Positions 61,087-63,307 of a DNA stretch of 64,000 bases are shown here, in pieces. Under the pieces are notes generated by a model, which searched no databases, had not been told where the DNA came from, and was given only the letters and a program-made list of their open reading frames with translations. The stretch lies in the NCBI GenBank assembly GCA_052387235.1, contig JBQTJJ010000033.1, positions 4,052 to 68,051 on the forward strand, given 5' to 3'. How positions within the stretch are numbered: position 1 is the stretch's first letter; each line of letters opens with the position of its first letter. The translations under genes were made by a program, and so were the position numbers. The DNA comes from Actinomycetota bacterium. GTDB lineage: Bacteria > Actinomycetota > Acidimicrobiia > Acidimicrobiales > GCA-2861595.

Positions 61087-62847
61087 ATGGCCACCAGGTC
61101 GAAGATCTACGTGGAGGGACCGCGGGGCGTGCGGGTGCCGTTCACCGAGGTGGGGCTGGCGCCTTCGCCGGACGGCCGCCCCAACCCCCCCGTCCGCCTC
61201 TACGACACCAGCGGGCCGGGGTCGGAGCCCACCGAGGGCCTGCCGCCGCTGCGCCGGGAGTGGATCCGAGGGCGCGGCGACGTGGAGGAGCACCCCGGCC
61301 GCCGGGCCACCCTCCGCGACGACGGCCGGGCCGCCGTGCGCAGGGCCGGTGGCGCCGAAGCGCCGGCGCCGTTCGCCGCCCGTCCCCGCCCCGTGCTTCG
61401 GGCCAGGCCGGGCCGCACCGTGACCCAGCTGCACTACGCCCGCCGGGGCGAGGTCACGCCCGAGATGGAGTTCGTGGCCGTCCGGGAGGGCTGCACTCCG
61501 GAGAAGGTGCGGGACGAGGTCGCCCGGGGCCGGGCCATCCTGCCCGCCAACGTCAACCACCCCGAGTCCGAGCCCATGGTGATCGGGCGCGAGTTCCTGG
61601 TGAAGGTCAACGCCAACATCGGCAACTCGGCCGTCACCTCGTCGGTGGCCGACGAGGTGGACAAGCTGACCTGGTCCACCAGGTGGGGCGCCGACACCGT
61701 GATGGACCTGTCCACCGGCGCCGACATCCACACCACCCGGGAGTGGATCCTGCGCAACTCGCCGGTGCCCATCGGCACCGTGCCGATCTACCAGGCCCTG
61801 GAGAAGGTGGACGGCTCGCCCGAGGACCTCACGTGGGAGCTGTTCCGGGACACCCTCGTGGAGCAGGCCGAGCAGGGCGTCGACTACTTCACCATCCACG
61901 CCGGCGTCCTCCTCCGCTACGTGCCGCTGACCGCCACTCGCGTCACCGGCATCGTCAGCCGGGGCGGGTCGATCATGGCGGCGTGGTGCCTGGCCCACCA
62001 CCAGGAGAACTTCCTCTACACGCACTTCGAGGACATCTGCGAGATCATGGCCACCCACGACGTGGCCTTCTCGCTGGGCGACGGCCTGCGCCCCGGGTCC
62101 ATCGCCGACGCCAACGACGAGGCCCAGCTCTGCGAGCTGCGCACCCTGGGCGAGCTCACCCGGGTGGCGTGGCGCCACGACGTGCAGGTGATGATCGAGG
62201 GCCCGGGCCACGTGCCGATGCACAAGATCAAGGAGAACATCGACCTCCAGCTCGAGGTCTGCCACGAGGCGCCCTTCTACACCCTCGGCCCCCTCACCAC
62301 CGACGTGGCCCCCGGCTACGACCACATCACCTCCGGCGTCGGCGCCGCCATGATCGCCATGTGGGGGACGGCCATGCTCTGCTACGTCACCCCCAAGGAG
62401 CACCTGGGCCTGCCCGACCGCGACGACGTGAAGCAGGGCGTGATCGCCTACAAGATCGCGGCCCACGCCGCCGACCTGGCCAAGGGCCACCCCGGCGCCC
62501 AGGCCTGGGACGACGCACTGTCCAAGGCCCGCTTCGAGTTCCGGTGGGAGGACCAGTTCGACCTGGCCATGGACCCCGACACGGCCCGGGCCTACCACGA
62601 CGCCACCCTCCCGGCCGAGCCGGCCAAGACGGCCCACTTCTGCTCCATGTGCGGCCCCAAGTTCTGCTCCATGCGCATCAGCCAGGACGTGCGCGACTAC
62701 GCCGCCTCCCACGGCGTGGACGACGAGGTCGCCCTCGAGCTGGGCATGAAGGAGAAGGCGGTGGAGTTCGTCGCCGGCGGCGCGTCGCTCTACGCCGCTC
62801 CCGAGTACATAGCTCGCCATTTTGGCGAGCTATTTACTCGGGAGTGA
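61087..62847 (+). CDS. thiC: Phosphomethylpyrimidine synthase ThiC
   Basis: 586 aa. Radical-SAM-like ThiC signatures ([22 protein letters not shown]). Preceded by a TPP riboswitch. Confidence 0.95.
62809..62833. terminator. AT-rich perfect 10-bp hairpin at the convergent thiC/grdA 3' ends (candidate bidirectional terminator)
   Basis: ATAGCTCGCC-atttt-GGCGAGCTAT followed by TTACT. It lies inside the last codons of thiC and ends immediately adjacent to the grdA stop codon (62834-62836). Confidence 0.5.
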
Positions 62848-63307
62848 GGGGTTGCGCCCGGATGCCGGCGACGGCGGCGTTGAGGGCGTCGGCTTCGAGG
62901 ATGTCGGCCATCACGCCGATCTGCTCGTCCCACACCTCGGGCGGGACGTCGCTGCGGACGTCGTCGTCGAGCACGTGGTACACGTCGAGGCCCAACTGGA
63001 CCCCTGCCAGTGCACCTGCATATGCCGGGTCTCCCAGCCGGACCGTCTCCGCCGAGATCTCCGCCGCCTCCGGATCGGGGGCACCGAGGATCACGACGAC
63101 CTGGTCACGGCCGTGGGTCTCCGCCAGCCGGAGGATGGCCTCCTGGCTCTGCAGGTCCATGGCGCCTGACGCCGTTCAGACGAAGCACTCCGTGGCCGTG
63201 AACACGACCTTGCCGCCGGCCGCCTCCACGCAGGCGGCGATGGCGGGGCCGGAGACCCCGTCACGTTCGCCCAGGGCGACCACCTTCTTGCCTTCCAGGA
63301 CTCCCAT
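62834..63307 (-). CDS. grdA: Glycine/sarcosine/betaine reductase complex selenoprotein A (in-frame UGA = selenocysteine)
   Basis: The tail of ORF 63176..63466 ([43 protein letters not shown]) ends at a TGA (63176-63178). That TGA is in frame, 6 codons upstream, with ORF 62834..63160 (MDLQSQ...[21 protein letters not shown]...). The joined product reads [14 protein letters not shown], matching the GrdA motif CFVUTAAGAMDL. 157 aa; AAGGAG SD. Confidence 0.85.

Follow-up and report, generated by a model that had tools for sequence, protein, structure and literature searches.

A gene for selenoprotein A of a glycine/sarcosine/betaine-type reductase (grdA), split by an in-frame UGA codon, was identified in a 64,000-nucleotide (nt) stretch of DNA from an uncultured member of the Acidimicrobiales (GenBank assembly GCA_052387235.1, contig JBQTJJ010000033.1, positions 4,052 to 68,051), the whole of which is referred to here as the window. 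The locus is read, with a probability of about 0.9, as encoding a 157-residue protein with selenocysteine (Sec) inserted at the UGA of codon 44. This reading is supported by the full-length matches to the protein family, the retention of the TGA between conserved flanks in relatives, the neighbouring thioredoxin and grdC genes and the UGA-split grdB-like gene of the relatives. Few bacterial selenoprotein families are as common as GrdA, which a survey of 2016 recorded in 142 organisms (PMC5029168), and the gene described here is an ordinary further representative of this well-known type. Its mRNA, together with those of its homologues, carries a long-range helix (P1) and a hairpin (H3) that are under strong selection at the RNA level. 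The features that define the gene are as follows.

62834 to 63307, minus strand: grdA coding sequence, 157 codons followed by the TAA stop at 62836-62834, with the UGA at codon 44.
63176 to 63178, minus strand: UGA codon 44 for Sec, within the motif C41-F-V-U44, placed from the translation and the alignment of relatives.
63313 to 63320, minus strand: Shine-Dalgarno-like sequence GGAAGGAG, 5 nt 5' of the ATG at 63307, read from the sequence.

A first-pass annotation of this DNA had joined two same-frame open reading frames (ORFs), separated by one TGA and five sense codons, into a protein of 157 amino acids colinear with GrdA, and every coordinate and count in it was borne out. The ORFs at 63176..63466 and 62834..63160 (both minus strand) share one frame, which is open from the ATG at 63307 to the terminal TAA with the TGA at 63178-63176 as its lone internal stop; the five codons between this TGA and the ATG at 63160 read T-A-S-G-A. 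The joined translation starts with MGVLEGKK and ends with LTPE*, and the Shine-Dalgarno-like sequence overlaps the final codons of the upstream thioredoxin gene. With Cys put for the stop, the joined product matched Pfam PF04723 (GRDA) at 1.4e-59 (200.6 bits, cutoff 22) over positions 1-147 of the 147 in the profile, in an alignment that spans the UGA unbroken, and scored 205.7 bits (cutoff 130) with NCBIfam NF040748, the equivalog model for 'glycine/sarcosine/betaine reductase complex selenoprotein A'. The placement of the TGA exactly at the Sec position also held, as it falls at the U of C-x-x-U and lines up with the x of TECFVxTxAGAMDL in homologues. No solved structure related to GrdA was found in the PDB, and the search for exactly matching DNA reaching past the window edge gave a single contig of 1,445 nt.

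Conservation of the codon was examined in two samples of homologous loci. The genome sample comprised 43 loci from species-representative genomes, 38 of them from uncultured Acidimicrobiia or other Actinomycetota (GrdA 65-94 % identical to that of the window) and five from Thermoanaerobacterales or Clostridia, and the metagenome sample a further 80 grdA loci. TGA stands at codon 44 in 43/43 and 80/80 of these, respectively, with the protein conserved on both flanks, a retention far beyond chance, and none of the 123 scanned loci has a Cys codon there. The protein search returned mostly fragments of 108 residues along with a few full-length entries carrying C or W at the Sec site; the fragments imply the same UGA split in those homologues and bear out the expectation that standard ORF calling misses or truncates the gene. 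TGC (Cys) was found at the Sec position in four rare homologues (L045:154-609, L046:8001-8474, L127:268-732 and L128:405-869), one of which, L046, adjoins selA, selB and a still-split grdB. GrdA was said in 2005-2006 to lack Cys homologues (PMC1794560, PMC1088965), a statement that these four genes supersede for metagenomic data.

The catalytic scheme of GrdA is the established Andreesen-type mechanism. By analogy with the biochemistry of characterised GrdA proteins, Sec44 would accept the carboxymethyl group that a substrate-specific protein B supplies, Cys41 in C-x-x-U would resolve the resulting selenoether to give an Se-S bond, protein C would release acetyl phosphate and the co-encoded thioredoxin would presumably re-reduce GrdA. 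Two of the partners are encoded directly 5' of grdA.

63310 to 63660, minus strand: thioredoxin gene, directly 5' of grdA in the same operon (PF00085, 9.7e-17).
63662 to 64000, minus strand: 3' end of grdC (component C, beta subunit), truncated at the edge of the window (NF040746, 2e-45, profile positions 368-476 of 477; DUF5940).

The part of grdC inside the window comprises its last 112 codons, and grdA is the last gene of the operon with thioredoxin and grdC. Of the 38 Actinomycetota loci, 37 have a thioredoxin gene immediately before grdA (36 by tblastn at E <= 1e-5; L031 and L032 gave no tblastn hit). The active site of the operon thioredoxin is atypical, reading W-G-T-D-C-Q-P-C, and the Caldanaerobacter counterpart reads C-E-Q-C. 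The complete operon is seen in L007, whose GrdA is 92 % identical to that of the window: L007:5381-10462 carries a grdE/G-like proprotein gene, a grdB/F/H-like gene, grdC, thioredoxin and grdA, and this five-gene order (grdE-like, grdB-like, grdC, thioredoxin, grdA) is common to the Actinomycetota loci. Clustering of the neighbouring genes in the relatives revealed nothing conserved outside it. A grdB with an in-frame UGA of its own, the partner that the first-pass annotation had named for a selenoprotein A gene, is seen in L007 and other close relatives, with the split precisely at profile position 346 in L007. Where an Actinomycetota locus extends this far, a hairpin, CGUUGC-GGG-GCAACG, comes after the grdB-like UGA, with its loop 18 nt beyond that codon; L016:2321-2358 scored 39.3 bits with the Rfam family SECIS_4 (cutoff 38), and Caldanaerobacter (L044) 65.3 bits.

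The operon is a consistent lineage-specific variant, with no grdD adjacent to it and a protein B of the type U-x-x-G-x-x-C. The GrdB-like protein of the relatives reads U-G-T-G-T-R-C and not U-x-x-C-x-x-C, and its scores with the GrdB, GrdF and GrdH equivalog models (242-300 bits) are all below the cutoffs (602-800). Searches by tblastn with GrdD, TrxB and GrdX of Caldanaerobacter found none of the three within 10 kb on either side of grdA in the 38 Actinomycetota loci; GrdD was detected in the Firmicute loci only, all of which have it after GrdC. Since grdD is absent both from the window and from these 38 neighbourhoods, the Actinomycetota complex may be something other than a canonical glycine reductase. 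The literature search found no paper that pairs glycine reductase with Acidimicrobiia.

Three absences in the window weigh against this reading of the locus. A Pfam scan of 57 candidate ORFs together with a tRNA scan detected no selA, selB, selC or selD in the 64 kb; the tRNA scan found no tRNA at all and hence no tRNA-Sec. The organism's own grdB and grdE lie past the window edge. GrdD, the PlsX-like alpha subunit of component C, was not found in the window by tblastn and none of the window ORFs has an FA_synthesis domain; a copy may lie elsewhere in the genome. In close relatives, selD of the Cys type (motif TSCGGCAAK) is present at L007:16824-17945 (minus strand; 326 bits, cutoff 125), 6.4 kb from grdA, and at L006:19971-20468; the syntenic stretch of the window carries a Ser/Thr kinase gene and cytochrome oxidase genes instead. 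Neither selA nor selB was found within 10 kb of grdA in any Actinomycetota locus. Calls of a 96-nt 'tRNA-Thr' (and 'tRNA-???') in L013 and L016 were considered as tRNA-Sec candidates and treated as false positives, because they have no Rfam support and one resembles coding sequence.

Decoding of UGA as Sec in bacteria involves a selenocysteine insertion sequence (SECIS) carried by the mRNA, and the strongest structural signals in grdA were found at some distance from the UGA. Columns are numbered below from the U of the UGA, so that the window coordinate is 63179 minus the column.

63151 to 63163, minus strand: 5' strand of P1, GCCAUGGACCUGC (codons A-M-D-L), from RNAalifold, duplex predictions and the pair table.
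63006 to 63019, minus strand: 3' strand of P1, GCAGGUGCACUGGC (codons A-G-A-L-A), from the same three sources.
62987 to 63004, minus strand: hairpin H3, GGGGUCC-AGUU-GGGCCUC (codons G-V-Q-L-G-L), 1 nt after the 3' strand of P1.

P1 joins codons 49-53 to codons 97-101; its 3' strand (A-G-P/A-L-A codons) lies about 145 nt beyond the A-M-D-L strand. Both P1 and H3 are conserved in 118 distinct grdA genes across phyla, over a range of guanine-plus-cytosine (GC) fraction of 0.32-0.75. The first four codons after the UGA vary freely at synonymous sites and the 5th to the 16th are nearly frozen. Frozen wobble sites for which the two proximal hairpins considered below (H1 and H2) do not account include, with codons counted from the UGA, Ala5 GCC, Leu8 CUG, Ala53 GCA and Leu61 UUG. 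Ala53 is GCA in 39/39 sequences and Leu61 is UUG in 39/39, these codons making up about 4 % of Ala and about 5 % of Leu codons, respectively; the invariance of the rare GCA is explained by its position in the 3' strand of P1.

Pairing in the two elements is maintained through sequence change. H3 was found in 123 of 125 grdA genes (GC 0.32 to 0.75), in two registers, the loop being AGUU, AGUUG or GUU; its pairs are formed in 99.7 % of cells in 44 Actinomycetota-type sequences and in 97.9 % in 55 other sequences, and one of them runs through GC, GU and AU. P1 of the Firmicute type consists of 11 continuous pairs (CAAUGGAUCUG with CAGGUCCAUUG), and that of the Actinomycetota lineage of CCUGC/GCAGG and GCCA/UGGC, each paired in 47-49 of 49 sequences; between columns 26 and 162, two clades have a U-A pair and the third has C-G. 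Synonymous recodings, 300 of them for the window, served as the null for stability. Native P1 is more stable than recoded P1 in the Actinomycetota type (-21.0 against -12.6 kcal/mol), the Firmicute type (-17.0 against -9.7 kcal/mol) and a second high-GC clade (-20.5 against -13.9 kcal/mol), and H3 of the Actinomycetota type likewise (-11.2 against -3.9 kcal/mol); in the window, 0/300 recodings were as stable as P1 and 1/300 as H3. The minimum-energy fold of 62981-63178 (minus strand; -106.7 kcal/mol, z = -3.05) contains P1, H2 stacked on the top of P1, a central hairpin, and H3 at the base. An outer helix in this fold (columns 7-11 with 193-197) was discounted, because it rests on freely varying wobble sites and would sit inside the ribosome. 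Neither an Rfam family nor a paper was found for the P1/H3 fold; access to the literature was partial and the novelty of the fold is provisional.

The consensus for bacterial SECIS elements (bSECIS; the model of Zhang and Gladyshev as quoted in PMC13188914) asks for a loop of 3-9 nt, a stem of at least 4 bp, a spacing of 16-37 nt from the UGA and an energy of -7.5 kcal/mol or lower, with G as the first or second loop nucleotide, the loop G being followed by G or U, and models of SelB binding place a stem of 6-8 bp at the mRNA entrance of the ribosome with some 20 nt between the UGA and the loop G (PMC4605307). H3 of the window has an AGUU loop on a 7-bp stem and a stability of -12.1 kcal/mol, which agrees with the consensus as far as the hairpin goes; the linear distance from UGA to loop is 177 nt against the 16-37 nt of the consensus, and its spacing fits only if P1 is accepted as bridging the gap. 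Like the canonical elements (fdhF of E. coli, the bSECISearch consensus, Rfam SECIS_4), H3 combines a stem of 6-7 bp with a small loop carrying G and then U; it differs from them in its linear position, 174 nt downstream, and comes near the UGA only through P1. In Caldanaerobacter the SECIS of selD, GGCACAG-GUU-CUGUGCC, and H3 of grdA, GGGUCCC-GUU-GGGACUC, carry the same GUU triloop, and the SECIS of grdB has the loop GGU. The H3 region of this grdA (L044:10299-10345) also gave 17.1 bits (E = 0.28) with the astrovirus frameshift hairpin model, a chance-level match attributable to the GC-rich 7-bp stem only, there being no slippery site.

The preferred reading of these features, held tentatively, is that grdA genes in general, that of the window included, may use a discontinuous SECIS composed of P1 and H3. 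In such a model the mRNA structure would recruit SelB carrying Sec-tRNA(Sec). With the 5' strand of P1 starting 12 nt after the UGA, the helix would leave a distance through space of about 13 nt between the UGA and the foot of H3; this hairpin, with its loop AGUU, might thereby come to lie beside the point at which the mRNA enters a ribosome that has paused on the UGA, and act as a SECIS-like hairpin, and H2 would stack on the top of P1 as a lineage-specific addition. The principle has an engineered counterpart: Su, Li and Gladyshev reportedly placed, in 2005, a SECIS within the 3'-untranslated region in E. coli and set it beside the UGA by designed base pairing. In both cases a long-range helix would bring a far SelB-binding hairpin beside the UGA; P1 and H3 differ in being natural, within the coding region and conserved across phyla, and their role as a SECIS is a proposal.

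Two observations speak against this proposal. All four Cys-type grdA genes, which belong to three clades, retain P1 and H3, which may mean that the fold has some other purpose or that the conversions to Cys are recent. The changes near the UGA in Cys-type L045 were considered as a loss of the SECIS and set aside; being common to the Sec-type sister L056, they are uninformative on Sec. The second observation is that the proximal hairpin H2 has a compensated pair of its own and, with its top pair opened, fits the bSECIS consensus.

63126 to 63148, minus strand: hairpin H2, AGCC(A)GGAGG-CCAU-CCUCCGGCU, -14.1 kcal/mol.
63155 to 63142, minus strand: small hairpin H1, CCUG-CAGAGC-CAGG, chosen by RNAalifold, 100 % conserved.

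H2 is the element that the first-pass annotation had put forward as a SECIS-like hairpin, at a distance from the UGA that it placed at the far end of the usual range. The distance was right: there are exactly 37 nt from the UGA to the loop, the published limit. The hairpin itself exists, with a loop of 4 nt and stems of 5 and 4 bp separated by a bulged A, and is the most stable local hairpin; its stability is within chance, since the 86-nt stretch that holds it has z = -1.0 and 33/200 shuffles fold as stably. Across 36 distinct Actinomycetota sequences its pairs are formed in 92.3 % of cells. The closing pair is compensated (GC in 21, AU in 10, UA in 1 and GU in 1), the A-U and U-A cases using AUU and AUA, which account for 3 % and 2 % of the Ile codons in these operons, and an extension pair between columns G27 and C56 is formed in 35/36. 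H2 lies within the bSECIS consensus in loop size, stem, spacing and energy, as a canonical hairpin would, and departs from it in the C-N-A-U loop, which has no conserved G and a free second position (C, G or A among relatives). With the top G-C pair opened, all the consensus features are present (loop GCCAUC, spacing 36, -12.0 kcal/mol).

H2 might therefore on its own be the functional SECIS, with P1 and H3 kept for another role such as mRNA stability or the pacing of translation, and the retention of P1 and H3 in the four Cys-type genes is what would be expected if these were unrelated to Sec. This alternative appears unlikely, though not negligible. Besides the missing loop G, H2 is disrupted in the Sec-type genes L031, L032 and L056 and absent from the Firmicute-type genes and many other clades, its stability is reached by 13.6 % of synonymous recodings in the window (0.136), and its spacing of 37 nt is twice the 18 nt of the grdB SECIS of the same lineage. 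H2 is lineage-specific and much less significant than the family-wide long-range structure; as a SECIS it is plausible, and not the best-supported element. H1 was rejected as a SECIS, at only -3.9 kcal/mol and weaker than about 80 % of synonymous recodings, and its 5' arm makes better sense as a piece of P1. The Rfam SECIS families gave no match to grdA at E <= 10, in the window or in Caldanaerobacter. The probability remaining after the discontinuous P1/H3 element and H2 alone falls to other or combined arrangements.

If P1 and H3 do recruit SelB, they would be an exception to the rule of a contiguous bacterial SECIS hairpin immediately after the UGA, would explain the lack both of an Rfam SECIS family and of a consistent proximal hairpin for grdA, and would change the search strategy for bacterial SECIS elements. 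They would also offer a natural layout in which Sec codons can be placed and the codons next to them left unconstrained.

As regards the UGA itself, it is very unlikely that the gene is a pseudogene, that the codon is a true stop or that it has been reassigned. Insertion of Trp, Gly or Cys, through a reassigned code or near-cognate read-through without Sec machinery, would agree with the W at this site in some database entries and with the lack of sel genes in the window, and deserves very little credence: the W in those entries is an artefact of gene callers run on DNA that contains TGA, close relatives possess selD, the grdB UGA of the same lineage has a canonical SECIS_4-type hairpin after it, and TGA is the stop of most genes in the window (74.7 % GC), which therefore uses the standard code and no alternative one. 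Least probable of all is a genuine stop, leaving a pseudogene or two products (a peptide of 43 residues and a protein of 108 residues from the ATG at 63160); gene callers do split the gene in this way, locus L001 being called as 43 amino acids plus the remainder and most homologues being kept as the 108-residue fragments, and a weak AGG stands 5' of the ATG at 63160, but the TGA is kept in all the TGA-type relatives across phyla with strong conservation on either side, the family profile runs on through it, and the site is that of Sec in characterised GrdA proteins, at which rare relatives carry Cys and never a frameshift or another stop.

Read as a Sec-containing GrdA, the product has its closest known counterpart in that of Stickland-fermenting Firmicutes (such as Peptoclostridium acidaminophilum, Clostridium sticklandii and Caldanaerobacter subterraneus, L044). 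Both are of about 157 residues and 48-55 % identical, and they share the motif TECFV-U-TxxGAMDL and the position of Sec; both genes are co-encoded with thioredoxin, grdB, grdC and grdE, and both carry P1 and H3. The differences lie in the operon, which in Actinomycetota has the order grdE-grdB-grdC-trx-grdA with no grdD, trxB or grdX within 10 kb in the 38 loci, in the U-x-x-G-x-x-C of the GrdB-like protein where Firmicute protein B has U-x-x-C-x-x-C, and in the host, an uncultured member of the Acidimicrobiales with 75 % GC and aa3/bc1 respiratory genes 5-12 kb away. The latter form an aerobic respiratory cluster at 50754-58139 (ctaG, ctaE (COX3), qcrC, qcrA, qcrB, ctaD (COX1) and ctaC (COX2)), close to a selenoenzyme operon of a type usually tied to anaerobes. 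The identification of grdA matters chiefly for annotation, as standard ORF finders split or drop the gene, and it flags a selenium-dependent reductase in soil Acidimicrobiia that also have an aerobic respiratory chain.

Other features were recorded on the 3' side of grdA.

62798 to 62844, minus strand: AT-rich hairpin of 21 bp (-38.4 kcal/mol, z = -10.7) that takes in the grdA stop codon.
61087 to 62847, plus strand: thiC, convergent with grdA.
60987 to 61096, plus strand: thiamine pyrophosphate (TPP) riboswitch, Rfam RF00059, 56.5 bits, 5' of thiC.

The hairpin at 62798-62844 also covers the last 15 codons of thiC, the two convergent genes overlapping by 14 nt. It is terminator-like, has no U tract and lies inside a genome of 75 % GC; it may be a bidirectional terminator. 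The consensus promoter and terminator scan of 62600-64000 found nothing, this hairpin included. The TPP riboswitch is the only Rfam family that passed the gathering threshold in the window. Elsewhere the window holds genes for fatty-acid synthesis and haem synthesis and a Ser/Thr kinase gene, a non-homologous end-joining set at 34663-37535 (Ku, LigD-primase and ligase), and a phosphate/polyphosphate block at 1-16149 comprising phoU, pstBACS, ppx, a PhoH-PIN gene, a CHAD protein gene, ppk1 and a HAD hydrolase gene.

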